From Escherichia coli (GTDB lineage Bacteria; Pseudomonadota; Gammaproteobacteria; Enterobacterales; Enterobacteriaceae), in NCBI RefSeq assembly GCF_051903065.1, contig NZ_CP178438.1: DNA of 64,000 nt, one strand, 5' to 3'. Made by a program: the position numbers and the translations under genes. Within the stretch, counting starts at the first letter, position 1, and every line of letters begins with the position of its first letter. A model generated the notes under the pieces. The model saw only the letters and a list, made by a program, of their open reading frames with translations, searched no databases and had not been told where the DNA came from. Below are positions 1,814 to 64,000 of the stretch, piece after piece.

Positions 1814-3148
1814 ATGACTGTAACGACTTTTTCCGAACTTGAACTCGACGAAAGCCTGCTGGAAGCCCTCCAGGATAAAGGTTTCACTCGCCCGACCGCC
1901 ATTCAGGCTGCCGCCATTCCGCCTGCGCTCGATGGCCGTGATGTACTCGGTTCTGCGCCGACAGGCACCGGTAAAACGGCGGCGTATCTGCTGCCAGCGT
2001 TGCAGCACCTGCTCGATTTCCCGCGTAAGAAATCCGGTCCGCCGCGTATTTTGATCCTCACCCCAACTCGCGAGCTGGCGATGCAGGTGGCCGATCATGC
2101 CCGCGAACTGGCGAAACATACGCATCTGGATATCGCCACCATCACCGGCGGCGTAGCCTATATGAACCACGCGGAAGTGTTCAGCGAAAATCAGGACATC
2201 GTGGTCGCCACGACCGGACGTCTGCTGCAATACATAAAAGAAGAGAACTTCGATTGCCGCGCGGTTGAAACGCTGATCCTCGACGAAGCAGACCGTATGC
2301 TGGATATGGGCTTCGCTCAGGATATCGAACATATTGCTGGCGAAACGCGCTGGCGTAAACAGACCCTGCTCTTTTCGGCAACTCTGGAAGGCGATGCGAT
2401 TCAGGACTTTGCCGAGCGTCTGCTGGAAGATCCGGTGGAGGTTTCTGCCAATCCGTCCACCCGTGAGCGCAAAAAAATTCATCAGTGGTATTACCGCGCC
2501 GATGACCTGGAACATAAAACCGCATTGCTGGTGCATCTGTTAAAACAGCCGGAAGCGACCCGCTCAATTGTGTTTGTGCGTAAGCGTGAGCGTGTGCATG
2601 AGCTGGCAAACTGGCTGCGCGAAGCGGGCATCAACAACTGCTATCTCGAAGGTGAGATGGTACAAGGCAAGCGTAACGAAGCGATCAAGCGTTTGACCGA
2701 AGGTCGCGTAAACGTACTGGTTGCAACCGATGTTGCCGCGCGCGGTATCGACATTCCTGACGTCAGCCACGTCTTTAACTTCGATATGCCGCGCAGTGGC
2801 GATACTTATTTGCACCGTATCGGACGTACCGCGCGCGCCGGTCGTAAAGGCACCGCAATTTCGCTGGTAGAAGCCCATGACCATCTGCTGCTGGGCAAAG
2901 TTGGTCGCTATATTGAAGAGCCAATTAAAGCTCGCGTGATTGATGAGTTACGCCCGAAAACGCGTGCGCCAAGCGAGAAGCAGACCGGCAAGCCATCGAA
3001 GAAAGTACTGGCAAAACGCGCCGAGAAGAAAAAAGCTAAAGAGAAAGAGAAGCCGCGGGTGAAAAAACGCCATCGCGATACCAAAAATATTGGTAAGCGC
3101 CGTAAACCAAGCGGAACGGGCGTGCCACCGCAAACGACAGAAGAGTAA
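1814..3148 (+). CDS. srmB: DEAD-box ATP-dependent RNA helicase SrmB
   Basis: 444 aa; motifs [25 protein letters not shown]; basic C-terminal tail. Confidence 0.95.
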
Positions 3149-3180: not shown

Positions 3181-4062
3181 TTATCCCGGCAAAAAACACT
3201 CTTCAACACACTGAATAAAAATGTGCATCGCCGGGCTAACCGCTTTTCCAGCATGATGTGCGCACATTGCCGTAATGGTCTGCGACTGTTCGCCAAAAGG
3301 CAATTCAATTAATTCTCCGCTCTCAAGCTCTTTTTCCACCGCAAAGCGGGGCAAGTAACTGACACCGATATTCGCCGCGACACAACGTTTGATACTTTCA
3401 ATGCTTAACAGCTCAATGGTGTTTTCCACCGTGCTCCGCCGCTGGCGCAATGTGCTTTCAAAGATCTGCCGAAAGACACATTGCGGTTCGTTGATAATAA
3501 AGCTACAGGCGTTATGTCTTCCCGGCTCAGTAAAATCGACATCTGCAATTTGCGGTGAAGCTACCAGCACCAGCGATTGCTCACCCAATTCTCGTCGGTT
3601 CAGGGCATCATCATTCCCTACGCGATAAAAAACCCCGACATCGGCCTCATCATTCAGTAGCGCATCACGGATCACGTAACAGTTCAGAGACTGCAACGAT
3701 AAACGCACTTTTGGGGCGCGTTGCCGAAAACGCTGCAACACCTGCGGCATTCGGTAAGAGAGCAACGTTTCGCCCGAAACAACGCGTAGTTCCCCGTCCG
3801 GATCCGACTCCTTTTTGGCAGCCTCACGAAGGGTATCCATCACTCTGGTGAGTTCATAAATGTGCGGCAGCAGCTTTTTACCTTCGCGAGTGAGGCACAT
3901 CCGTCGGCCAATTTTCTCAAATAACTGTACCGAGAACTCCTGCTCAAGCTGCTGAATATGAAAAGTCACCGTCGATTGTGTACAGCACAATTTTTGCGAA
4001 GCTCGCAAAAAGGAACCCTCTTCCACCACGGTTTTAAGCGTAATAAAACGGCGCAGATCCAT
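3181..4062 (-). CDS. yfiE: LysR-family transcriptional regulator
   Basis: 293 aa from ATG at 4062 (MDLRRFITLK...), N-terminal HTH plus LysR substrate domain; divergent from eamB. Confidence 0.85.
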   Translation of the reverse strand: MDLRRFITLKTVVEEGSFLRASQKLCCTQSTVTFHIQQLEQEFSVQLFEKIGRRMCLTREGKKLLPHIYELTRVMDTLREAAKKESDPDGELRVVSGETLLSYRMPQVLQRFRQRAPKVRLSLQSLNCYVIRDALLNDEADVGVFYRVGNDDALNRRELGEQSLVLVASPQIADVDFTEPGRHNACSFIINEPQCVFRQIFESTLRQRRSTVENTIELLSIESIKRCVAANIGVSYLPRFAVEKELESGELIELPFGEQSQTITAMCAHHAGKAVSPAMHIFIQCVEECFLPG

Positions 4063-8694: not shown

Positions 8695-11355
8695 ATGAGT
8701 CAGCGAGGACTGGAAGCACTACTGCGACCAAAATCGATAGCGGTAATTGGCGCGTCGATGAAACCCAATCGCGCAGGTTACCTGATGATGCGTAACCTGC
8801 TGGCGGGAGGCTTTAACGGACCGGTACTCCCGGTGACGCCAGCCTGGAAAGCGGTGTTGGGTGTGTTGGCCTGGCCAGATATTGCCAGCTTGCCCTTTAC
8901 ACCCGACCTTGCGGTTTTATGTACCAATGCCAGCCGTAATCTTGCTCTTCTGGAAGAGCTCGGCGAGAAAGGCTGTAAAACCTGCATTATTCTTTCCGCC
9001 CCGGCATCGCAACACGAAGATCTCCGCGCCTGCGCCCTGCGCCATAACATGCGCCTGCTTGGACCAAACAGTCTGGGTTTACTGGCTCCCTGGCAAGGTC
9101 TGAATGCCAGCTTTTCGCCTGTGCCGATTAAACGCGGCAAGCTGGCGTTTATTTCACAATCGGCTGCCGTCTCCAACACCATCCTCGACTGGGCGCAACA
9201 GCGTGAGATGGGCTTTTCCTACTTTATTGCGCTCGGCGACAGCCTGGATATCGACGTTGATGAATTGCTCGACTATCTGGCGCGCGACAGTAAAACCAGC
9301 GCCATCCTGCTCTATCTCGAACAGTTAAGCGACGCGCGACGCTTTGTTTCGGCGGCCCGTAGTGCCTCGCGCAATAAACCGATTCTGGTAATTAAAAGCG
9401 GACGTAGCCCGGCGGCTCAACGTCTGTTGAACACCACGGCAGGAATGGATCCGGCGTGGGATGCGGCTATTCAGCGTGCCGGTTTGTTGCGGGTACAGGA
9501 CACCCACGAACTGTTTTCGGCGGTAGAAACCCTTAGCCATATGCGCCCGCTGCGTGGCGACCGGTTGATGATTATCAGCAACGGTGCTGCGCCTGCCGCG
9601 CTGGCGCTGGATGCCTTATGGTCACGCAATGGCAAGCTGGCAACACTAAGCGAAGAAACCTGCCAGAAACTGCGCGATGCACTGCCAGGACATGTGGCAA
9701 TCTCTAACCCGCTCGATCTGCGCGATGACGCCAGCAGCGAGCATTATGTCAAAACGCTGGACATTCTGCTCCATAGCCAGGATTTTGATGCGCTGATGGT
9801 TATTCATTCGCCCAGCGCCGCTGCTCCCGCAACAGAAAGTGCGCAAGCATTAATTGAAGCGGTAAAGCATCATCCCCGCAGCAAGTATGTTTCTCTGCTG
9901 ACGAACTGGTGCGGCGAGCACTCCTCGCAAGAGGCACGACGTTTATTCAGCGAAGCCGGGCTGCCGACCTACCGTACCCCGGAAGGAACCATCACTGCTT
10001 TTATGCATATGGTGGAGTACCGGCGTAATCAGAAGCAACTACGCGAAACGCCGGCGTTGCCCAGCAATCTGACTTCCAATACCGCAAAAGCGCATCTTCT
10101 GTTGCAACAGGCGATTGCCGAAGGGGCTACGTCGCTCGATACCCATGAAGTTCAGCCCATCCTGCAAGCGTATGGCATGAACACGCTCCCTACCTGGATT
10201 GCCAGTGATAGCACGGAAGCGGTGCATATTGCCGAACAGATTGGTTATCCGGTGGCGCTGAAATTGCGTTCGCCGGATATTCCACATAAATCGGAAGTTC
10301 AGGGCGTCATGCTTTACTTGCGCACAGCCAATGAAGTCCAGCAAGCGGCAAACGCTATTTTCGATCGCGTAAAAATGACCTGGCCGCAGGCGCGGGTCCA
10401 CGGCCTGTTGGTGCAAAGTATGGCTAACCGTGCTGGCGCTCAGGAGTTGCGGGTTGTGGTTGAGCACGATCCGGTTTTTGGGCCGTTGATCATGCTGGGT
10501 GAAGGCGGTGTGGAGTGGCGTCCTGAAGATCAAGCCGTCGTCGCACTGCCGCCGCTGAATATGAACCTGGCCCGCTATCTGGTTATTCAGGGGATCAAAA
10601 GTAAAAAGATTCGTGCGCGCAGTGCGCTACGCCCATTGGATGTTGCAGGCTTGAGCCAGCTTCTGGTGCAGGTTTCCAACTTGATTGTCGATTGCCCGGA
10701 AATTCAGCGTCTGGATATTCATCCTTTGCTGGCTTCTGGCAGTGAATTTACCGCGCTGGATGTCACGCTGGATATCGCGCCGTTTGAAGGCGATAACGAG
10801 AGTCGGCTGGCAGTGCGCCCTTATCCGCATCAGCTGGAAGAATGGGTAGAATTGAAAAACGGTGAACGCTGCTTGTTCCGCCCGATTTTGCCAGAAGATG
10901 AGCCACAACTTCAGCAATTCATTTCGCGAGTCACCAAAGAAGATCTTTATTACCGCTACTTTAGCGAGATCAACGAATTTACCCATGAAGATTTAGCCAA
11001 CATGACGCAGATCGACTACGATCGGGAAATGGCGTTTGTAGCGGTACGACGTATTGATCAAACGGAAGAGATCCTCGGCGTCACGCGTGCGATCTCCGAC
11101 CCTGATAACATCGATGCCGAATTTGCCGTGCTGGTTCGCTCGGATCTCAAAGGGTTAGGCTTAGGTCGACGCTTAATGGAAAAGTTGATTACCTATACGC
11201 GAGATCACGGACTACAACGTCTGAATGGTATTACGATGCCAAATAATCGTGGCATGGTGGCGCTGGCCCGCAAGCTCGGGTTTAACGTTGATATCCAGCT
11301 CGAAGAGGGGATCGTTGGGCTTACGCTAAATCTTGCCCAACGCGAGGAATCATGA
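8695..11355 (+). CDS. patZ: protein lysine acetyltransferase (acyl-CoA synthetase-like plus GNAT)
   Basis: 886 aa; CoA-binding/ATP-grasp-like N-terminal region and C-terminal GNAT domain. Confidence 0.9.
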   Translation: MSQRGLEALLRPKSIAVIGASMKPNRAGYLMMRNLLAGGFNGPVLPVTPAWKAVLGVLAWPDIASLPFTPDLAVLCTNASRNLALLEELGEKGCKTCIILSAPASQHEDLRACALRHNMRLLGPNSLGLLAPWQGLNASFSPVPIKRGKLAFISQSAAVSNTILDWAQQREMGFSYFIALGDSLDIDVDELLDYLARDSKTSAILLYLEQLSDARRFVSAARSASRNKPILVIKSGRSPAAQRLLNTTAGMDPAWDAAIQRAGLLRVQDTHELFSAVETLSHMRPLRGDRLMIISNGAAPAALALDALWSRNGKLATLSEETCQKLRDALPGHVAISNPLDLRDDASSEHYVKTLDILLHSQDFDALMVIHSPSAAAPATESAQALIEAVKHHPRSKYVSLLTNWCGEHSSQEARRLFSEAGLPTYRTPEGTITAFMHMVEYRRNQKQLRETPALPSNLTSNTAKAHLLLQQAIAEGATSLDTHEVQPILQAYGMNTLPTWIASDSTEAVHIAEQIGYPVALKLRSPDIPHKSEVQGVMLYLRTANEVQQAANAIFDRVKMTWPQARVHGLLVQSMANRAGAQELRVVVEHDPVFGPLIMLGEGGVEWRPEDQAVVALPPLNMNLARYLVIQGIKSKKIRARSALRPLDVAGLSQLLVQVSNLIVDCPEIQRLDIHPLLASGSEFTALDVTLDIAPFEGDNESRLAVRPYPHQLEEWVELKNGERCLFRPILPEDEPQLQQFISRVTKEDLYYRYFSEINEFTHEDLANMTQIDYDREMAFVAVRRIDQTEEILGVTRAISDPDNIDAEFAVLVRSDLKGLGLGRRLMEKLITYTRDHGLQRLNGITMPNNRGMVALARKLGFNVDIQLEEGIVGLTLNLAQREES

Positions 11356-13193: not shown

Positions 13194-14488
13194 AGACGCA
13201 TCCCCTTCCCTTTGCGATGTAGCATCAAAGAAACCAGAAACGCCACCACGGCCATCAAGGTCACATACCAGAAGAAGGCTGTTTCCATTCCTATTGATTT
13301 CAGCGACAACGCTACGTACTCCGCCGAACCACCAAATATAGCATTAGCGACCGCATATGACAGACCAACGCCTAATGCGCGAACCTGTGCCGGGAACATC
13401 TCAGCCTTCAGTATTCCACTGATTGATGTATAAAAACTCACTATCAGCAGGGCACACATCACCAGACCAAAAGCGGCATAAGGCGAGGAAACGTTTTGCA
13501 ATGCTGAGAGAATAGGAACGGTAAAAACGGCTGCCAGCGAACCGAAACATAACATTGAGGTACGGCGACCAATCTTATCCGACAGCGCGCCAATGAGTGG
13601 TTGAATAAGCATGAATACAAACAATGCGGCAGTCATAATGCCACTCGCCACGTTGGCATGCATTCCCGCAGTATTTACCAGATACTTCTGCATATAAGTG
13701 GTGAAGGTATAGAAACAAAGGGAGCCCGCAGCGGTAAAACCGAGAACCATGATGAATGCACGGCGATTACGCCATAATCCTTTCAGAGATCCAGCTTCTT
13801 TTAAAGCGCGCGTTTCTTGTTGCGAAGTTTCATCTAACTGACGACGTAACCACAACGCCACAACAGCTAACACAGCTCCTAACGCGAAAGGAATACGCCA
13901 TCCCCACTCTCTGAGTGCTGCGTCTTCCATGGTGTGTTGTAAAACCACGACAACCAGTAGGGCTAGCAGTTGTCCGCCGATCAACGTCACATACTGAAAT
14001 GATGCGTAAAAACCTTTGCGCCCTTCAACGGCAACTTCACTCATATAGGTGGCGCTGGTGCCATATTCTCCGCCAACGGATAATCCCTGAAATAAACGCG
14101 CGAGAAGCAATAATGCCGGAGCCCACGTACCGATTGTTTCATAACCAGGCAAACAGGCTATTACCAGTGAGCCGAAACACATCATACACACCGATAGCAG
14201 CATCGATTTTTTGCGACCATGTTTATCGGCTATGCGGCCAAATAGCCAACCGCCTATTGGGCGCATCAGGAATCCCGCAGCAAAAACACCTGCTGTTTGT
14301 AGTAGTTGAGTCGTCGTGTTCCCGGAAGGGAAGAAGATGTGGGCAAAGTAGAGTGAACAGAACGAGTAGACATAGAAATCGAACCACTCGACCAGATTAC
14401 CTGAAGAGGCCCCCACAATCGCCCAAATGCGGCGACGAGTATCACTACTTGTCAGTTTGCTGTCTGCCGTTACAGTACTTTCAGCCAT
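13190..14488 (-). CDS. kgtP: alpha-ketoglutarate:H+ symporter (MFS)
   Basis: 432 aa from ATG at 14488 ([10 protein letters not shown]...), 12-TM MFS protein. Confidence 0.93.
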
Positions 14489-15021: not shown

Positions 15022-17923
<2,902 letters not shown>

Positions 17924-28733: not shown

Positions 28734-29804
28734 TTAAGCCACGCGAGCCGTCAGCTGCCCGTTCAGATCCTGATGAATTTCACGCAGCAAGGCATCGGTC
28801 ATTTCCCAGCTAATGCAGGCATCGGTTACGGATACACCGTATTTCATTTCACTGCGCGGTTGCTCGGAAGACTGATTGCCCTCGTGGATATTACTTTCGA
28901 TCATCAGACCAATAATTGAGCGATTGCCATCTTTGATTTGAGCAACCACGGATTCTGCCACCGCAGGCTGACGGCGATAATCTTTATTGGAATTACCGTG
29001 GCTGCAATCTACCATCAGAGACGGGCGCAGTCCCGCCTGTTCCATCTCTTTTTCACATTGCGCAACATCCGCAGGGCTATAGTTCGGCGCTTTACCACCG
29101 CGCAGGATGACATGTCCGTCCGGATTCCCCTGAGTTTGTAGCAACGCAACCTGCCCTGCTTGGTTAATGCCAACAAAACGGTGCGGCTGGGCGGCGGCGC
29201 GCATAGCGTTAATTGCTGTTGCCAGACTGCCGTCGGTGCCGTTTTTAAAACCAACCGGCATGGAAAGCCCGGAGGCCATTTCACGGTGAGTTTGCGATTC
29301 CGTTGTACGAGCACCAATTGCTGACCAGCTAAACAGATCGCCCAGGTATTGCGGGCTATTCGGATCTAACGCTTCCGTCGCCAGTGGCAGTCCCATATTC
29401 ACCAGCTCAAGCAGCAATTTACGCGCGATCTGCAGCCCGGCTTCTACATCAAAAGAGCCATCCATACGGGGATCGTTAATTAACCCTTTCCAGCCGACAG
29501 TGGTACGGGGTTTTTCAAAATAGACGCGCATTACCAGATAGAGGCTATCGCTGACCTCTGCGGCAAGGGCTTTAAATCGACGAGCATATTCCAGAGCAGT
29601 TTCCGGATCATGAATGGAACAAGGGCCACATACTACCAGCAGACGAGGATCGCGCCCGGCGATAATATCTGAAATGGTTTTACGCGAGTCAGCAATCTGG
29701 GCTTCTTGTTGCAGGCTTAATGGAAAAGCGGCCTTCAGTTGTGCCGGAGTCATTAAAACCTGTTCGTCGGTAATATGTACGTTATTCAGCGCGTCTTTTT
29801 GCAT
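28734..29804 (-). CDS. aroF: DAHP synthase, Tyr-sensitive
   Basis: 356 aa from ATG at 29804 ([10 protein letters not shown]...); forms aroF-tyrA operon. Confidence 0.95.
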
Positions 29805-44135: not shown

Positions 44136-44498
44136 GGGGCTGATTCTGGATTCGACGGGATTTGCGAAACCCAAGGTGCATGCCGAGGGGCGGTTGGCCT
44201 CGTAAAAAGCCGCAAAAAATAGTCGCAAACGACGAAAACTACGCTTTAGCAGCTTAATAACCTGCTTAGAGCCCTCTCTCCCTAGCCTCCGCTCTTAGGA
44301 CGGGGATCAAGAGAGGTCAAACCCAAAAGAGATCGCGTGGAAGCCCTGCCTGGGGTTGAAGCGTTAAAACTTAATCAGGCTAGTTTGTTAGTGGCGTGTC
44401 CGTCCGCAGCTGGCAAGCGAATGTAAAGACTGACTAAGCATGTAGTACCGAGGATGTAGGAATTTCGGACGCGGGTTCAACTCCCGCCAGCTCCACCA
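44136..44498 (+). ncRNA. ssrA: tmRNA (transfer-messenger RNA)
   Basis: 363 nt from GGGGCTGATTCTGGATTCGACGGG to ...GGTTCAACTCCCGCCAGCTCCACCA; tag-ORF region present. Confidence 0.97.
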
Positions 44499-44621: not shown

Positions 44622-45104
44622 ATGGAAGAACTTCACTTTGTTTACATCAATGCAAATGGTCGTATCGGTGTTCACTCAATACAGAGCATCAGTTATAGCG
44701 AAAATCATATACAGGGCATTTGTAAGAACACCGATCGAATAAAAACCTTCCGAAAAGACCGCATTCTTAAACAGTACGATTCACCAGAACAAGCCATTCA
44801 GGAATGCGCGTCATTCCTCCCCGAAAACTACTCACATCTCACTAAGCAGTCTGGTCCGAAAAAAAATACATTCGATGTGTGCTTCACCGGATTTAAGAAA
44901 GCAGATAAAGAAAGATTGGTTGATAAGGCGAATGAACAAGGATTAACGGTAAGAACCTCTGTAACCCAAAGCCTTCAGATGCTCTGTTGCGGTTACAATG
45001 CAGGCCCATCAAAAGTATCGGCAGCCAGGATGAAAGGCACAATCATCATAGATGAGCCTGGCTTTATACATTTTCTTGAAACGGGTGAGATCCCAGATGA
45101 ATAA
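44622..45104 (+). CDS. hypothetical prophage cargo protein, WYL-like N-terminal domain plus BRCT-like C-terminal domain
   Basis: 160-aa ORF with AGAGG 10 nt upstream of ATG; N-terminal ...DRIKTFRKDRI resembles the WYL-domain RxFRxDRI strand; C-terminal FDVCFTGF...GLTV...GPSKVSAARMKGTIIIDEPGF resembles the LigA-type BRCT fold pattern. Confidence 0.6.
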   Translation: MEELHFVYINANGRIGVHSIQSISYSENHIQGICKNTDRIKTFRKDRILKQYDSPEQAIQECASFLPENYSHLTKQSGPKKNTFDVCFTGFKKADKERLVDKANEQGLTVRTSVTQSLQMLCCGYNAGPSKVSAARMKGTIIIDEPGFIHFLETGEIPDE

Positions 45105-45107
45105 AAA

Positions 45108-45125
45108 CCTGCCGTAGCAGGTTCT
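45108..45125. terminator. bidirectional terminator between the cargo gene and ogr
   Basis: Hairpin AACCTGC-CGTA-GCAGGTT flanked by A/T runs between convergent stops. Confidence 0.6.
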
Positions 45126-45130
45126 CTTTC

Positions 45131-45349
45131 TCAAAAATTCATATGCCCCTGACCACCTGGCAATGGATGTGGAGGGGCTGTAGCAATCAATGCAGGTGTC
45201 ACAATAAACCGGACCACTGTTTCATGGGTAACAAAAGTGCTCCCGCAGTTAATATTTTGGCACTGGCAGTAACGCTCTTTGGTGCTTTCTGTTACTTGAA
45301 AACTGCTCCTTGTGTGCGCCGCATGACCACACTTCGGACAATTCATCAT
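45131..45349 (-). CDS. ogr: Ogr-type zinc-finger late-gene activator
   Basis: From ATG at 45349 (or 45346): MMNCPKCGHAAHTRSS...KERYCQCQNINCGSTF...PHPLPGGQ matches the P2 Ogr CxxC-N22-CxxxxC pattern; ORF-track GTG extension rejected. Confidence 0.85.
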   Translation of the reverse strand: MMNCPKCGHAAHTRSSFQVTESTKERYCQCQNINCGSTFVTHETVVRFIVTPALIATAPPHPLPGGQGHMNF

Positions 45350-51082: not shown

Positions 51083-52255
51083 TTACGCGCTGACCTGGCT
51101 GGAGAAATTCACCAGGTACTGATCGGTGATGCGCTGACGCAGCATCAGGTTTTCAAGTGGCGGCACTGGCGTGTAGTCGTAGTCGATGGTGAGTTTTCCG
51201 GCTTTCAGCGTGTCTTTGTCGTTCACCGACTCATCCAGCCAGCAATCACCACCAATGAGATAGCCCTGACTGACCAGGCTGCGCATTTTGGCGCGGATAC
51301 CCTCGATAATGTCGCGGGCCAGCGACGGATTCAGCGGTTTATCCACCGCCCACATGTGCGCTTCTGCCATCGTGTCCGTCAGCACCTGCGCCGTGCGGGT
51401 GTAGTTTTCGAAGGCAAAGAGCGGGTCATCACTCAGGCAGCGGGAACCCCAGAAGCGAAAACCGTCTTTGCGGATAAGGGTGGTGACGTCGTTCTGGTTC
51501 AGCAGTCCCGCATCGGTTGCCGGGTCCTGCAGATCCCAGAACACATCAGCAGAAATTCCGGTGACACCGTTAACGCCCACGTTGGACAGGCTTTTGTGCC
51601 ATCCGGTCTGCTCGTCAATTTTGGCGCGCAGACCAAGCGCACGGGCGGTGGCATAAGCCGTTGCTTCGGCATTCAGCACCGTGTCCCAGCCAGTAAAGTC
51701 GGGCCAGATCAGCATTCCTTCGCGCTGGCTGAAGTTTTCACGGTAAGTGATCGCCTCCTGTACCGTCTTGCAGCCATACGCTGACAGGTAGGCAAACCCA
51801 CGCAGGCTTTGCGCCACGCTCAGCAACTCAGTAGCAACGGCTTTGTTATCGTGACCTGGCACGCCGAGAATGCGCGGTTTAACGCCGAGCTGTGTCTGGG
51901 CAGATAACAGGGCTTTCATGCCTGTTTTTTTACCTTCAGCAGTCACTGCGCCGATGATATTGGTCGTGGTTTCTTCTTCCGTTTCACCCTGCGGCACACG
52001 CACAACAACGGTCACTGGTTTTGCCTGGTCAGCGATGGCATCCAGCGAACGGGCCAGCGTGCCGGACTCACCCGCTTTACCGCTGGCAGTCAGCACATCA
52101 GTGATCAGCACGGGTTTATTAAGAGGAAACATTTTTGCATCGGCATCATCGCCCGTGCAGACCATACCCACGATGGCGGTGCTCACCGTGGTAATGGATC
52201 GGGTGCCTTCGTTGACTTCAGCAACGCGCACCCCGTGGTGGTAATCCTGAGCCAT
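51083..52255 (-). CDS. FI: contractile tail sheath protein (P2 gpFI-like)
   Basis: 390 aa, sheath-like sequence, first gene of the FI-FII-E-T-U-D operon. Confidence 0.88.
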
Positions 52256-52331
52256 AGTGGCGAACCTCCTGATTGGATTAGGCTTCGCCCTATGTTGAAG
52301 TGATTGTGCCTGACAAACAGCTAAGCACAGT

Positions 52332-52349
52332 TGTGTCGTTATTCACACA
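52332..52349. promoter_or_regulatory. Ogr-box-type dyad TGT-N12-ACA upstream of FI (late promoter candidate)
   Basis: TGTGTGAATAACGACACA on the minus strand, centred about 85 bp upstream of the FI start. Confidence 0.55.
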
Positions 52350-52397
52350 AAATGACGGTATTTGTCCGCTTACAGGAAAAATCAAAATAATACTGAC

Positions 52398-52964
52398 TCA
52401 GGGCGATTCATTGCTCTCATTCGCCGGAAATTTTCTATAAATGGTAGAAACGCCCACATCAAAAATCAGTGCAATACGCTGTCTTGATTCTCCGGCCTCG
52501 AGTAAACGTCCAATCTGTGCCCACTGTTCGGTGGTCAACTTAGGACGGCGTCCACCTACTCTGCCTTTGGCACGAGCTGCAGCCAGCCCTGCTCTGGTAC
52601 GTTCAACTATCAGTTCACGTTCCATTTCAGCCAGAGCCCCCATGACGTGAAAAAAGAAACGGCCCATTGGGGTACTGGTATCAATACTGTCAGTCAGGCT
52701 TCGGAAATTCACACCACGCTGGCGCAACTCTTCTATCAGCGTAACAAGATGCCGCATACTGCGCCCCAGTCTATCCAGCTTCCAGACAACCAGCGTGTCT
52801 CCTGCCGATAGTGTCCTGAGCAGTTTTTTAAGCCCCGGTCTGTCGGACTTAGTGCCACTGATTTTATCCTCAAAAATCCGCTCACATCCCGCGCAGTTCA
52901 GTGCATTACGTTGCAAATCGGTGTTCTGGTCATTTGTTGACACGCGTACATAGCCAATAAGCAT
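52398..52964 (-). CDS. serine DNA invertase (Hin/Gin/Pin family)
   Basis: 188 aa from ATG at 52964: MLIGYVRVSTNDQNTDLQ... with catalytic Ser region and C-terminal HTH (GVSTIYRKF); ORF-track upstream extension rejected. Confidence 0.9.
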   Translation of the reverse strand: MLIGYVRVSTNDQNTDLQRNALNCAGCERIFEDKISGTKSDRPGLKKLLRTLSAGDTLVVWKLDRLGRSMRHLVTLIEELRQRGVNFRSLTDSIDTSTPMGRFFFHVMGALAEMERELIVERTRAGLAAARAKGRVGGRRPKLTTEQWAQIGRLLEAGESRQRIALIFDVGVSTIYRKFPANESNESP

Positions 52965-53019
52965 GATCAATCCCCTGAATAAAAACCGGGGATGATGCCA
53001 GTTAGCCATTATCTCTGCA

Positions 53020-53045
53020 TTTTCTTAAACGTTGGTTTGGGAGAA
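53020..53045. repeat. hix/gix-like 26-bp inversion site (left)
   Basis: TTTTCTTAAACG-TT-GGTTTGGGAGAA; bottom strand reads TTCTCCCAAACC-AA-CGTTTAAGAAAA; shares 14 bp with the right site in inverted orientation. Confidence 0.75.
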
Positions 53046-53468
53046 GGTTCGGCATTACCCGTTGGTGTGCCTGTTCCGTGGCCTTCTGCAATACCGCCTA
53101 CTGGCTGGCTGAAATGTAACGGTGCGGCTTTTTCTGCCGTTGAATATCCTAAACTGGCGAGGGTTTACCCGACAAATAAATTACCTGATTTACGCGGTGA
53201 GTTTATTCGTGGCTGGGATGATGGGCGTGGAGTGGATAGTGGGCGCGCGTTATTATCAACTCAAACAGATGAATTTAAATCACATAGTCATTATTTCGAA
53301 AGAACATGGGCACAAACTGGATTTGATACAACAGGTGGATATTATCTTTTAGCCGCTGATGTTTCTGGCTCAGTAAATCAACAGAGATCCGATAGCACTA
53401 ACTCGGTGGGGGGGAGAGAATCTCGCCCTCGTAATATTGCATTTAACTATATTGTGAGAGCTGTGTAA
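53033..53468 (+). CDS. alternative tail-fibre C-terminal segment, promoterless in this orientation
   Basis: Frame continuous through the left site; encodes GLGEGSALPVGVPVPWP...LPDLRG...SHSHYF...NIAFNYIVRAV, the P2 gpH-type C-terminal pattern. Confidence 0.75.
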
Positions 53469-54073
53469 TGGATAATGCTGTATTAAATAGCGAACATATT
53501 GCTACGAAGGCTGGAAATGTTACTGTTTATAACTTTGACGGTGAAACGCGAGAGTATATTTCCCCATCTATTGAATATATTGCCGTTGGTGTCGGTATTC
53601 CGGCATATTCATGTTTAGATGCTCCTGCCACACGTAAAGATGGTTATGCTATTTGCCGTTCTGCAGGCTTAAACTCATGGGAATATATACCAGACCATCG
53701 CAGTGAAATTGTCTATAGCACTGAAACAGGAGAATCAAAAGAAATCACAGCTCTGGGGGATTACCCTGAAAATACAACCATTATCGCCCCATTAACGCCA
53801 TACGATAAATGGGATGGTGAGAAATGGGTGACGGATACCGAGGCACAGCGTAGCGCCGCAGTAGACGCGGCAGAAGCACAGCGCCAGTCGCTGATTGATG
53901 CTGCTATGGCTTCCATTAGCCTGCTTCAACTGAAATTACAGGCCGGACGGAAGCTGACGCAAGCAGAAACAACCCGACTAAACGCCGTGCTGGATTACAT
54001 TGACGCGGTGATGGCAACGGATACCAGCAACGCGCCGGGGGTTATCTGGCCAGTTCCACCTGAGATGGTTTAA
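53468..54073 (+). CDS. tail-fibre assembly chaperone (Tfa/gpG-like) for the alternative fibre segment
   Basis: 201 aa, start overlaps upstream stop (TAATG); C-terminal pattern ...TDTSNAPGVIWPVPPEMV typical of Tfa proteins. Confidence 0.8.
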   Translation: MDNAVLNSEHIATKAGNVTVYNFDGETREYISPSIEYIAVGVGIPAYSCLDAPATRKDGYAICRSAGLNSWEYIPDHRSEIVYSTETGESKEITALGDYPENTTIIAPLTPYDKWDGEKWVTDTEAQRSAAVDAAEAQRQSLIDAAMASISLLQLKLQAGRKLTQAETTRLNAVLDYIDAVMATDTSNAPGVIWPVPPEMV

Positions 54074-54225
54074 TCTCAATCAGAATGGGTTCGCCCTTCT
54101 CGTTAACAGATATTTCCATTCCTTCAGGGATTTCAGATGCAGTAAAAAACCAGTTATCTTCTGGTAATTCAACAGCCCCGGTCACGTCATGAAGACCGGG
54201 GATTACTTCAGTCAAAGTAACAGGA
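54042..54225 (-). CDS. short ORF downstream of H (possible truncated or non-canonical Tfa); uncertain
   Basis: Only about 61 codons are open after the H stop in this frame and no ATG with a clear RBS is present; the track's 95-aa ORF overlaps H. Confidence 0.25.
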
Positions 54226-55617
54226 TTAAACAGGCGCACAATAAACTCTCCAAGAAAAAGCACTTGTTGATGGTCTTCCGTCGTACATCTGGCAGCGGAC
54301 ATAAAAACCGGTATTAGTGACCTGGTCATCCACGATCATTGAAACGTGAACGTTATTAGATGTGCTCCCGTAATCCGTTCTTATTCTTTCCGCTATGCTG
54401 ATAAAACGTGAAAGCTTAGGTAGCGCAATTGGATAAACGACTTTAGCCAGTCCATTATCATTAGAACCACCCGTTCCAAAGACTTCTATTGCACCATCTG
54501 ACCAGCGTATCCATGCACCATTGGCATTAGCTCCTCGTTGAATGACATATCTGGCTTCTCCCAAACCAAGGTATGCGAGAAGACCAGCTACATCCTTTCC
54601 ACTCAAATTGGTAAGCGTATTGTCCAGCGGTTGTTTACCTGCCAGCGCATTAAGCATTGTCGTGGCAAAGTTCGGATCATTCCCCAGTGCCGCCGCCAGT
54701 TCGTTCAGTGTATCCAGTGCCGCAGGTGCAGAACCCACCATTGCTGCAATCGCTGATTTCACAAAAGCCGTGGTGGCAATCTGTGTATTGTTGACCGACT
54801 GTGCCGCAGTAGGTGCGGTTGGCGTTCCGGTGAGTGCCGGACTCGACAGCGGCGCTTTCAGTGCCAGTGCATTGTTAATGGTGGTACTGAATTTCGGATC
54901 ATTGTTAATGGCTGCGGCTATTTCTTTCAGCGTGTCCAGCGTGGCTGGCGCACCATTAATAAGAGCCGTCAGAGCCGCCTGAACAAACGCGGTGGTCGCA
55001 ATCTGCGTGGTGTTATTCCCTGCTGCTGGCGTTGGCGCTTTGGGTGTCCCGGTAAACGTCGGACTTTCTTTGGGTGCATACTGTGAATGCGGGTCCGGTG
55101 CGGCAAGATGTTTTGCCATCTGATCATCCGCGTACACCTTCAGCTCCAGTGCCTTGTCATCCACATACTTGCGGGTTGCCAGCACTACAGCAGGGTCGAT
55201 TTTCAGGGTGATATTGTCCGTGCTGCTGGTAATCAGCACCATGCGCACGGTCTGAGTGCGCCCGCTACCTTCAGCCAGTTGCGGCTTATAGCTTTCCGGG
55301 CAGTTGCCCACGGCAATCAATGCCTCGGACTCATCAAACAGGCCCACTTCACGAATCCACCAACCGCCCTCGTTTTCAGGGATCACCTGTTCGGCAATAA
55401 TCTGGCTGCTGTTCTGCGGGTCGATATAGAGCATATTCAGCGCAGCCCGGCGTTTCTCATTTACCAGTGCAGTCTGCTTTGAGTCTGGCGTTGGCAATAC
55501 TCCGCCGCCATCGCCGACCGCCATATGGGTAATTTTTAGCGGCACACCGAGCGCGGCGGCGCTGGCAAGTTTCGCCGCGCCAATATCCGTCAGCAGGGTA
55601 TAAAATTTTGTGCTCAT
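54226..55617 (-). CDS. H: tail fibre protein (P2 gpH-like), currently expressed variant
   Basis: 463 aa; conserved N-terminal part, two about 70-aa Ala/Thr-rich repeats, junction ...AYLGLGEA at the right inversion site, then a distinct C-terminal domain ending YCAPV. Confidence 0.88.
   Translation of the reverse strand: MSTKFYTLLTDIGAAKLASAAALGVPLKITHMAVGDGGGVLPTPDSKQTALVNEKRRAALNMLYIDPQNSSQIIAEQVIPENEGGWWIREVGLFDESEALIAVGNCPESYKPQLAEGSGRTQTVRMVLITSSTDNITLKIDPAVVLATRKYVDDKALELKVYADDQMAKHLAAPDPHSQYAPKESPTFTGTPKAPTPAAGNNTTQIATTAFVQAALTALINGAPATLDTLKEIAAAINNDPKFSTTINNALALKAPLSSPALTGTPTAPTAAQSVNNTQIATTAFVKSAIAAMVGSAPAALDTLNELAAALGNDPNFATTMLNALAGKQPLDNTLTNLSGKDVAGLLAYLGLGEARYVIQRGANANGAWIRWSDGAIEVFGTGGSNDNGLAKVVYPIALPKLSRFISIAERIRTDYGSTSNNVHVSMIVDDQVTNTGFYVRCQMYDGRPSTSAFSWRVYCAPV
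54546..54571. repeat. hix/gix-like 26-bp inversion site (right), inside H
   Basis: TTCTCCCAAACC-AA-GGTATGCGAGAA; 12-bp imperfect inverted half-sites around a central AA, close to hixL as recalled. Confidence 0.75.
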
Positions 55618-57120: not shown

Positions 57121-57466
57121 TCTCTGCTCCTGTTGATACGGAAAGGGACACAGGCACACCGTTATTCCGCCGCCCGGTCAGCTCCACCACCATAGAACCG
57201 TCAAAGTTGCTGTTGATGGTGATGGAATCCAGCGTCAGCCGTGGCTCCCAGCGACTCAGCGCCACATACACTGCCGACATGACCTGCAGGCGTAATGCCG
57301 GATTTTGTGGCTGATCTATTAAAACCGACAGGAGGGAACCATATTCCCGGCGGGCAATACGGCTACCCTGCGGTGTCAGCAGAATGTCCCGCACCGACTG
57401 GCGCAGATGATCAATATCAGTAATGACTTTGCCGCTGGTATTGTTCATCCCGCTATAAAGCGTCAT
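57107..57466 (-). CDS. W: baseplate protein W (P2 gpW-like)
   Basis: About 115-119 aa, motif SRWEPRLTL; position between V and J. Confidence 0.85.
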   Translation of the reverse strand: MTLYSGMNNTSGKVITDIDHLRQSVRDILLTPQGSRIARREYGSLLSVLIDQPQNPALRLQVMSAVYVALSRWEPRLTLDSITINSNFDGSMVVELTGRRNNGVPVSLSVSTGAENGSD

Positions 57467-58041
57467 ACCGGGCCTCCGGTTGTATCGCCGCCTTTCAGGA
57501 CGCCAGTATGCTGATGCGCATCAACCACGATCCCGTTAGAACTCATCGCTCCGCCGCCCTGGGTAACGCCACCATTGATCACCACTTCGCTGTTAATGCG
57601 CGTGCGGTCAGCCTCCAGTACAAACTCACTGGTTTTCATGGTGATGTTGTCAGCAGCCTCAATGACCATTGATTTGATGCCCCTGACATACCAGCGCCCG
57701 GTGGCGGGTTCGTATTCAAACCAGCCACCGTCAGGATGTTCTGTCACGCAGGCGTCCGCCGACGTCGACGGTGGTGCGAACTGATTCGAATAGACAGCGG
57801 GCAGCGCAAAGGCGGTTTCCAGATTGCCGCCCAGACTCAGCAGCACCACCTGCTCACCTTCCGATGGTCGCCACCATGTACGGGCATTCCCGGCACGCAG
57901 CGTCAGCCAGCTGATCCAGTTGGTTTCAAGCTCGCCCGTTTTCACCCGGCAAAGCCAGTTTTCCCTGTCCACTTCGGTGACTACCCCTGTGCGGATCAGG
58001 TTGGTGATAAGGCGCATGATTTCGGTTAATTGTGCGTTCAT
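57463..58041 (-). CDS. V: baseplate spike/assembly protein V (P2 gpV-like)
   Basis: 192 aa; first gene downstream of a TGT-N12-ACA dyad. Confidence 0.82.
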   Translation of the reverse strand: MNAQLTEIMRLITNLIRTGVVTEVDRENWLCRVKTGELETNWISWLTLRAGNARTWWRPSEGEQVVLLSLGGNLETAFALPAVYSNQFAPPSTSADACVTEHPDGGWFEYEPATGRWYVRGIKSMVIEAADNITMKTSEFVLEADRTRINSEVVINGGVTQGGGAMSSNGIVVDAHQHTGVLKGGDTTGGPV

Positions 58042-58087
58042 AGGGAAAGGTTGCCATCAGGGGAAGAAAGGCGGCAATGCTGCAACT

Positions 58088-58105
58088 TGTATCAGTGCTG
58101 ATACA
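58088..58105. promoter_or_regulatory. Ogr-box-type dyad TGT-N12-ACA upstream of V (late promoter candidate)
   Basis: TTGTATCAG-TGCTGA-TACAA; extended perfect 9-bp inverted arms; centred about 55 bp upstream of the V start. Confidence 0.6.
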
Positions 58106-58109
58106 AAGA

Positions 58110-58556
58110 TCACCCCGCCAGCCATTGCAGAATCATGTCACGGGTCATTGCCTCAACATCATCATTTACACCCAGAAGGCGACGCTCTGCGTAACGCACC
58201 TCCGGTCCCTTACGACTGACGCGATCTCGCAGGCCGTAATGGTGAACGCGGGCAATGCGCTGCACCTTGCCTTCAAACTGCACGCTGGCAGAGTCGGTGC
58301 TGGCGGCAGTTTTCAGGTATTTTGTGGTGCGCAGCTTTGCAAACATCTGACGTTTGATACGGCCTTTTTTACTGCGTGCTGTTACCCGTCGCGGTTCATA
58401 GCTGCTGCCGTCAGGGTTGCGCTGCATCCTGATATTCTGCTGCTGTGTCCGGCGAAGTTCCTGCGCCAGCTGGCGCATCATGCGGCTTCTCGTGGCTGGT
58501 TCCAGATTCGCCAGCAAGGCACTCAGCCAGTCGTCCACCTTCTGCAGTTCAGCCAC
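58110..58556 (-). CDS. S: tail completion protein S (P2 gpS-like)
   Basis: 148 aa; position and size. Confidence 0.78.
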   Translation of the reverse strand: MAELQKVDDWLSALLANLEPATRSRMMRQLAQELRRTQQQNIRMQRNPDGSSYEPRRVTARSKKGRIKRQMFAKLRTTKYLKTAASTDSASVQFEGKVQRIARVHHYGLRDRVSRKGPEVRYAERRLLGVNDDVEAMTRDMILQWLAG

Positions 58557-62707: not shown

Positions 62708-63541
62708 TCAGCAATTGGTCAGAGTGTCAGCGTGGGCGTTACCGCCTGTTGCACGCTGGCGGTAGTCCTGGCGGCTGTCTTCATGACTCAGCTTATTCAC
62801 CAGTTCGTTAAAGGCGGTCTGCTGTGCCTGCAGGGCAGTCTCCAGCTCAGACAGACGTTCTTCCTGCTCAGACAGGGATTTTTCGGTGCGTGCGCTCAGG
62901 TTTTGCTGCTCAGTGGCGACCAGCTCCACGGCCTTATGCACATCAGAGAACCGGGCATCGTCGGACTGCTCTTTTTTGGTGAACAGCGCCGTGACGCGGG
63001 CAAACAGGGACGGCTTGTCCTCCTGGATTTCTTCCAGTTCGATCACCGTTTCCTCTGCGGCGGTAAAGAGATTGGCGGGATTCTGCTTGCGGTTTGCCAG
63101 CGGGTTATGGGCTGCACTGGCGCTGAATGTCAGCATTTCAGTGCCCAGACTGGCAGGGTCATCAGTGGCAGCCAGGCCGACCAGGTAGGCTTTGCCCGTA
63201 TCAGCAAACTTCGGGCTGACTTCCATAGAGGTGAATAATTTCTGGCCTTTTTTCACCAGTTCCACCAGGGATTCCGTTGGCTCAACGTCGGCATACAGCG
63301 CCATCTTGCCTGCCAACGGACCTTCCGTGATTTCTTCAGCAAACAGCGCCGTCACCTTGCCGTAGCGGTTAAAGGTGCTGTCCGGCAGATAAGACTTGAT
63401 GTGCTCAAGGTTAATCAGCGCGGTATACACCGCCGGGTTGTAGCTGGCTGCCATCTGTTCCAGCCATTCACGCTGGATTTCGCGTCCGTCGGTGGTGGCA
63501 CCTTCCACCCCGATGCGAAAACGCTTTGCTTTCACTGTCAT
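62708..63541 (-). CDS. O: capsid scaffolding protein O (P2 gpO-like)
   Basis: 277 aa, coiled-coil acidic C-terminal part; first gene of the O-N-M-L operon. Confidence 0.82.
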   Translation of the reverse strand: MTVKAKRFRIGVEGATTDGREIQREWLEQMAASYNPAVYTALINLEHIKSYLPDSTFNRYGKVTALFAEEITEGPLAGKMALYADVEPTESLVELVKKGQKLFTSMEVSPKFADTGKAYLVGLAATDDPASLGTEMLTFSASAAHNPLANRKQNPANLFTAAEETVIELEEIQEDKPSLFARVTALFTKKEQSDDARFSDVHKAVELVATEQQNLSARTEKSLSEQEERLSELETALQAQQTAFNELVNKLSHEDSRQDYRQRATGGNAHADTLTNC

Positions 63542-63618
63542 GAGCCGTGCTCCGTTAGAAAAAACTTACTGGAGCCTTATGGTTGCGGTGATGGGGGCAG
63601 TGAAACAATGCGCGGTAT

Positions 63619-63636
63619 TTGTACCGACAACCACAC
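63619..63636. promoter_or_regulatory. Ogr-box-type dyad TGT-N12-ACA in the divergent O/P intergenic region
   Basis: TGTACCGACAACCACACA, about 86 bp from the O start and 55 bp from the P start. Confidence 0.5.
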
Positions 63637-63682
63637 AAACCGCAGGCGGGGAAAGCCTTCATTCAAGGCTGTAGGTTTGTGC

Positions 63683-64000
63683 CATGAACACCACACTGAC
63701 ACCCGCAGATCTCGATCCCCGTCGGCAGGCCATGCTGCTGTACTTTCAGGGATACCGCGTCGCCCGCATTGCTGAAATGCTAGGCGAGAAAGTTGCAACC
63801 GTTCACAGCTGGAAAAAACGCGACAAGTGGGGTGACTATGGGCCGCTGGATCAGATGCAGCTCACCACCGCCGCACGCTACTGCCAGCTCATTATGAAGG
63901 AGCACAAAGAAGGGAAAGATTTCAAAGAGATTGACCTGCTGGCGCGCCAGTCGGAGCGCCACGCGCGGATCGGCAAGTTTAACAATGGCGGCAACGAAGC
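63683..64000 (+). CDS. P: terminase ATPase subunit P (P2 gpP-like), N-terminal part; continues beyond window
   Basis: MNTTLTPADLDPRRQAMLLYFQGYRVARIAEMLGE...HSWKKRDKWGDYGPLD matches the gpP N-terminal pattern; no stop within window. Confidence 0.85.

Follow-up and report, generated by a model that had tools for sequence, protein, structure and literature searches.

The DNA analysed here is a stretch of 64,000 nucleotides from Escherichia coli, hereafter called the window. Positions 1 to about 44500 belong to the E. coli chromosome, with recN, bamE, ratA, smpB and ssrA, and are 99% identical to the corresponding region of thousands of E. coli genomes. A P2-like prophage, inserted at ssrA, occupies the remainder of the window, beginning at about 44.5 kb; the window ends inside gene P, and the prophage is thus seen only as far as that gene. 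Escherichia phage 500465-1 (Peduoviridae, Wadgaonvirus) and a series of Klebsiella prophages match this region with 96-97% identity. With the exception of P, which is on the plus strand, the late genes of the prophage are carried by the minus strand (Table 1). An earlier sequence-only reading of the window had named FI, V, O and P, and these identities are correct, being supported by Pfam matches in the case of FI, V and O, and by the annotation of a relative together with an N-terminal alignment with the P2 and 186 proteins in the case of P.

Table 1. Genes, predicted activator sites, -10-like hexamers and predicted transcript starts of the prophage region and its boundary
Feature	Position	Strand	Basis or remark
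tmRNA gene	44136-44498		
ogr, late-gene activator (72 aa)	45131-45349	minus	Pfam Ogr_Delta
D, U, T, E/E', FII	between ogr and FI	minus	
FI	51083-52255	minus	Pfam
Serine invertase	52398-53009		Resolvase + HTH_7
Invertible tail-fibre segment, then H, I, J, W	between invertase and V	minus	
V	57463-58041	minus	Pfam
S	58110-58556	minus	followed by R, lysis genes, X, L, M, N
O	62708-63541	minus	Pfam
P	start 63684, runs off the window	plus	annotation of a relative; N-terminal alignment with P2 and 186 P
PF activator site (predicted)	52331-52350	minus	TTGTGTGAATAACGACACAA, read on the minus strand
PV activator site (predicted)	58087-58106	minus	TTGTATCAGCACTGATACAA, perfect 9-bp arms
Shared PO/PP activator site (predicted)	63619-63638		TTGTACCGACAACCACACAA
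PF -10-like hexamer	52292-52297	minus	CAACAT; register against P2 and 186
PV -10-like hexamer	58048-58053	minus	CAACCT; register against P2 and 186
PO -10-like hexamer	63580-63585	minus	CAACCA; register against P2 and 186
PP -10-like hexamer	63672-63677	plus	TAGGTT; TAGCCT at the same position in P2 and 186
PF start (predicted)	near 52285	minus	A
PV start (predicted)	58041	minus	A of the V ATG
PO start (predicted)	near 63573	minus	
PP start (predicted)	63684	plus	A of the P ATG

Between the ssrA attachment end and ogr, an ORF of 160 residues (44622-45104, plus strand) matches phrog_2561, 'DNA ligase', at 2e-77, and shows weak matches to the C-terminal parts of NAD-dependent ligase families; it has no Pfam match. 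This ORF, which is probably a cargo gene, is convergent with ogr, and a hairpin at 45106-45123 is common to both. Between H and FI, the segment 52398-54329 encodes the serine invertase, alternative tail-fibre tip ORFs and tail-fibre assembly ORFs, at the place occupied by Z/fun in P2. A search for inverted repeats as candidate crossover sites of the invertase near PF yielded nothing at the PF dyad described below and no more than weak pairs within 52618-54258. The stop codon of the invertase gene lies 49 bp upstream of that dyad, and no terminator is called between them. Relatives without the invertase have, directly next to the dyad, a G+C-rich hairpin and a subsequent T run that look like a terminator on visual inspection.

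Three perfect TGT-N12-ACA dyads are present, one before FI, one before V and one in the O/P gap, as placed by the ORF map, the annotation of a relative and Pfam. The first two, at 52332-52349 (TGTGTCGTTATTCACACA) and 58088-58105 (TGTATCAGTGCTGATACA), are found exactly where the sequence-only reading had put them, and the second indeed extends to perfect 9-bp arms (TTGTATCAG/CTGATACAA) over 58087-58106. The third was also rightly recognised, but its coordinates had been given one base too low (63619-63636); it occupies 63620-63637 (TGTACCGACAACCACACA). Each dyad lies within a small non-coding gap at the head of an operon; the gaps before FI and between O and P are both 142 bp long, and that separating S from V is 68 bp. 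The PF dyad is centred between 52340 and 52341, with the FI ATG (52255) 85.5 nt downstream. The PV site begins 3 nt past the S stop codon (58110) and is centred 55.5 nt before the V ATG (58041). The O/P dyad, centred between 63628 and 63629, is 87.5 nt from the ATG of O (63541, minus strand) and 55.5 nt from that of P (63684, plus strand).

Late control of the P2 type has been known since the 1980s. The TGT-N12-ACA element is given as the consensus of the four P2 late promoters PP, PO, PV and PF in a passage of PMC3931495, which cites Delta footprinting work as its source. Late transcription of P2 depends on Ogr, a zinc-binding activator of the C-X2-C-X22-C-X4-C type (passages of PMC3931495 and PMC5694545). 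Delta of the satellite P4 is a homologue of Ogr, and both proteins promote the expression of P2 and P4 late genes (passage of PMC8628076).

With regard to P2 itself, the same four late operons are found in the same gene order as in the window. Its GenBank record annotates activator sites at 17555-17583 (pF), 10239-10266 (pV) and 3057-3087 ('pO, pP promoters'), and transcript starts at 17626-17628, 10308, 3127 and 3016. For phage 186, sites of the B protein are annotated at 14091-14110 (pJ) and 3798-3817 ('activation of pV and p12'). Upon alignment, the window dyads are in register with the pF, pV and pO/pP sites of P2 and with the pJ and pV/p12 sites of 186, in agreement with the proposal of the sequence-only reading that they match the P2 late-promoter activator site. 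The distance from dyad centre to ATG is likewise similar, being 85.5 nt for FI (82.5 in P2), 55.5 nt for V (56.5 in P2) and 87.5 nt for O (95.5 in P2 and 87.5 in 186). In P2 as in the window, TGT and ACA-type halves are 12 bp apart, one site is shared by O and P, and an Ogr_Delta zinc-finger activator is encoded after gene D; the P2 centres are 55.5-58.5 nt upstream of the transcript starts. In 186, a single B-protein site is annotated for the divergent pV and p12, like that of the O/P gap in the window, the pJ site is upstream of the sheath gene, and only a short gap separates the neighbouring homologues of S and V, which is also the arrangement in the window.

However, the window differs from these phages in several respects. 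Its three sites are perfect TTGT-N12-ACAA, whereas the right halves are CCA or CAA instead of ACA in P2 (3063-3080, 10243-10260 and 17561-17578), and the 186 sites (3800-3817 and 14093-14110) are TGT-N12-CCA or worse in the right half. The late promoters of 186 also include that of orf32, the homologue of V, for which its record shows no upstream site. Compared with P2, the window lacks an insertion of the orf30 type, which in P2 occupies the S/V junction, and carries the invertase and the invertible tail-fibre segment upstream of PF in place of Z/fun; its Ogr is only 56% identical to that of P2. More distant P2-like phages of Ralstonia, phiRSY1 and phiRSA1, which belong to a distant lineage and infect a distant host, carry TGTTGT-N13-ACAACA, with longer half-sites and a 13-bp spacer.

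Conservation was evaluated in relatives whose sequences around the dyads diverge. The region upstream of FI is represented by 59 distinct sequences from 80 viral contigs, falling into 7 families at 60% identity, and all 59 contain a perfect TGT-N12-ACA, 78.5-85.5 nt from the ATG. The V proteins of the relatives share about 99% identity, but the DNA upstream of V comprises 17 distinct sequences from approximately 10 mutually unrelated families. Every one of the 17 has a perfect dyad, at 54.5-56.5 nt from the ATG. In control zones of equal size, taken upstream and inside the genes, the number of matches was between 0 and 2. As for the O/P gap, the 80 loci with gpO relatives in viral contigs are all 99-100% identical and hence uninformative, and six further genera of the Peduoviridae were used instead. 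Each of them (Gegevirus, Duonihilunusvirus, Vimunumvirus, Reipivirus, Gemsvirus and Senquatrovirus) has one main dyad between P and O. The S/V junction (58042-58109; loci L084-L163) is a swap point, where homology breaks just 5' of the dyad, and the dyad is the first element retained on the V side.

A six-base motif carries little information, and the dyads might be chance occurrences without any role. The bare TGT-N12-ACA is not enriched in the 64 kb, with 19 matches against 15.2 +/- 4.1 in shuffled sequences (at least 19 in 23 of 100 shuffles), and 16 of the 19 are at unrelated places, so that the case rests on position, on the extended motif and on conservation. The extended TTGT-N12-ACAA occurs three times in the 64 kb, only at the three dyads, but its count is in itself not unusual, since 18 of 100 shuffles contain at least three matches. 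The sequence-only reading had proposed a motif scan of the prophage, and regarded an equal density of dyads in non-promoter DNA as an argument against itself; such a density is formally what is observed for the six bases alone, but neither for the extended motif nor for the positions. All three dyads fall within about 350 bp of non-coding DNA at operon heads, and the joint probability that all three gaps would contain one or more bare matches by chance is approximately 2e-5. Furthermore, they are in register with annotated sites of P2 and 186, and keep a fixed distance to the ATG despite unrelated flanks (59/59 and 17/17, against 0-2 in the controls). Position and conservation therefore exclude a fortuitous origin, to which we attribute practically no probability. 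The long palindrome before V could, alternatively, act mainly at the RNA level, as a hairpin terminating or stabilising the O-operon transcript, rather than as a DNA site. It does fold in the predicted RNA, with a 9-bp stem and a 4-nt loop, and a putative O-operon terminator has been placed between S and V in P2. However, the stem is A+T-rich and is not followed by a U tract, the predicted fold is no more stable than that of shuffled sequences (z = 0.59), and the terminator scan does not call it, features on which an intrinsic terminator at this palindrome was rejected. Where relatives have a different S/V junction, the long arms are missing, but the spacing between TGT-N12-ACA and the V ATG is unchanged. 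A predominantly RNA-level role is therefore very improbable. Finally, the PF dyad resembles a site for the cAMP receptor protein (CRP), which would place tail genes under catabolite control: 52332-52347 (TGTGTCGTTATTCACA) is one mismatch away from the CRP core TGTGA-N6-TCACA. Yet the window contains 3 such one-mismatch matches where 2.2 are expected, close relatives do not preserve the CRP half-sites (TTGTATGA..., ...GGTACAA) but keep the outer TGT and ACA, and neither the PV nor the PO/PP site matches CRP. A CRP site at PF would be centred near -54.5, outside the standard class I and class II positions. The CRP reading was rejected on account of these chance-level matches, variable half-sites and the non-standard position; we regard the resemblance as coincidental and control by CRP as very unlikely.

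A weight matrix built from the sites of other phages ranks the three dyads first to third in the window (21.6, 20.7 and 19.0 bits), while 15 of the other bare matches, leaving out that at 63678-63695, reach at most 7.2 bits. We give this matrix little weight, because its sites had been picked as the best TGT...ACA match and its core columns are consequently circular. The annotated sites of P2 and 186, being TGT-N12-CCA or CAA, score only 7.5-8 bits, below some unannotated positions. The matrix is thus tuned to perfect dyads and is not a general detector, and its scores reflect the unusually perfect palindromes of this lineage. With this tool, no further strong site that might indicate a fifth late promoter was found in the window or in the 30.7 kb of 500465-1, where the scan returned the same three sites plus one; the next best score, 12.6 bits, lies inside gene D. 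In phage 186, the best match of the matrix is an unannotated sequence at 29576-29593 (TGTATGGGATTACACACA, 16.2 bits), located about 20 nt upstream of orf97 and directly after the terminator t95a.

The arrangement of the O/P gap deserves separate consideration. The sequence-only reading had suggested that its dyad may be shared by the two divergent promoters, which agrees with the annotation of P2 and 186, each with one site. In P2, the shared site (3057-3087) is centred at 3071.5, and the starts at 3016 and 3127 are each 55.5 nt away; in the window, the single dyad is located at the same distance from both predicted starts. The accompanying statement that the region holds only one perfect dyad does not stand, however, since a second perfect bare TGT-N12-ACA is present at 63678-63695 (TGTGCCATGAACACCACA), 58 bp from the main dyad. 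It overlaps the P start codon, its TGT half being intergenic and its ACA half lying in codon 4 of P. PO and PP might therefore depend on separate sites, the second being either this match or a degenerate dyad elsewhere in the gap. Besides being a perfect bare match, 63678-63695 ranks fourth in the window with the weight matrix (16.4 bits), and Julien and Calendar reportedly described, in 1995, an additional Delta site in P4 late promoters. Nevertheless, its centre falls at +2.5 with respect to the predicted start of PP and at about -113 with respect to that of PO, and hence at -55 of neither. The match is not kept in the equivalents from the nearest other genus (Gegevirus), from Yersinia or from P2, all of which keep the main dyad, and a close relative (L222) has TAT for TGT. 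No other position of the gap scores well with the weight matrix, and the single shared sites annotated in P2 and 186 are 54.5-57.5 nt from both starts. Separate sites for PO and PP thus appear improbable. The match at 63678-63695 is probably fortuitous, and the chance that it has a role is small. As a speculative and still unlikely variant, PP may have been shortened in this lineage to give a leaderless mRNA for the terminase (P), with 63678-63695 as a low-affinity Ogr operator throttling PP as Ogr accumulates. If this were true, the shared O/P control region would combine an activator site with an autoregulatory switch.

Counted from the dyad centres, all four window promoters have a -10-like hexamer at +44 to +49 (Table 1). 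It has the same place in 5 of the 7 promoters of P2 and 186 that were compared, and lies at +45 to +50 in P2 pF and 186 pJ. The P2 hexamers are GAAAAT for the F-type promoter (one base later), CAATCT for the V-type, GAAACT for the O-type and TAGCCT for the P-type, and those of 186 are GACAAT (F-type, one base later), GAAACT (O-type) and TAGCCT (P-type), the comparison with 186 covering these three types without the V-type. A scan for the sigma-70 consensus detected no promoter containing a -35 element at PF, PV or PO/PP, which fits a dependence on an activator; the P2 promoters similarly combine a weak -10 at +44 to +49 (one base further in pF) with the lack of a -35.

The annotated P2 starts are 55.5-58.5 nt from the dyad centres, and the window starts listed in Table 1 were predicted on this basis. 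From these, FI would have a leader of about 30 nt with an AGGAGG Shine-Dalgarno sequence, and O a leader of about 32 nt with GGAG. The ATGs of V and P, in contrast, are at +56 from the dyad centre, 7 nt past the -10-like hexamer, and no Shine-Dalgarno sequence is found at either start codon. Since both ATGs coincide with the predicted transcript starts and lack a Shine-Dalgarno sequence, leaderless mRNAs are predicted, and the V and P mRNAs are probably of this kind. In the case of V, this fits the P2 record, where the start of the V-operon transcript is annotated on the first base of the V coding sequence, the same start as predicted here. With regard to P, the window differs from P2, in which the ATG is 78.5 nt from the dyad centre and preceded by a 23-nt leader with GAGG. 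The short arrangement of P is also present in Yersinia phage YenM06.16-2 (56.5 nt) and Salmonella phage SEN4 (55.5 nt), both of which carry TAGCCT at -12 to -7 of the P ATG.

The gene for the presumed activator is intact. The predicted ogr product matches Pfam Ogr_Delta with 74 bits (cut-off 26.3; E = 9e-21) and contains the cysteine pattern C3-X2-C6-X22-C29-X4-C34. The end of gene D, directly before ogr, contains three overlapping candidates for a sigma-70-like promoter (45431-45377, minus strand), which correspond to the ogr promoter annotated in P2.

Taken together, the position, register and conservation of the three dyads indicate that they are very likely the activator-binding sites of four late promoters, PF, PV and the divergent PO and PP, of a P2-like prophage. 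P2 Ogr is known to activate transcription through the C-terminal domain of the RNA polymerase alpha subunit. In the window, following induction of the prophage, the 72-residue Cys4 zinc-finger Ogr protein would recognise TTGT-N12-ACAA about 55.5 nt upstream of the transcript starts, and would recruit sigma-70 RNA polymerase to promoters with a weak -10 and without a usable -35. The one dyad midway between O and P would serve both divergent promoters. We infer the binding of Ogr, the contact with the alpha subunit and the exact transcript starts from the literature on P2, 186 and P4. Ogr/Delta homologues of P4-like satellites would be expected to act on the same sites; in P4, with its Psid and PLL promoters, the activator Delta is homologous to Ogr, from which cross-activation of the window sites may be anticipated.

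These dyads are a further instance of the long-known late control of P2, and identifying them is ordinary annotation that leaves the understanding of this control unchanged. What is gained is a regulatory annotation, naming four late promoters, their activator sites and predicted transcript starts, for P2-like prophages of E. coli and Klebsiella (Wadgaonvirus and relatives) that are common but unstudied. The dyad is, in addition, the one fixed landmark of the S/V and G/FI junctions, at which unrelated accessory genes are swapped in, and is of use in delimiting cargo genes and in predicting the helper prophages that P4-like satellites could activate.
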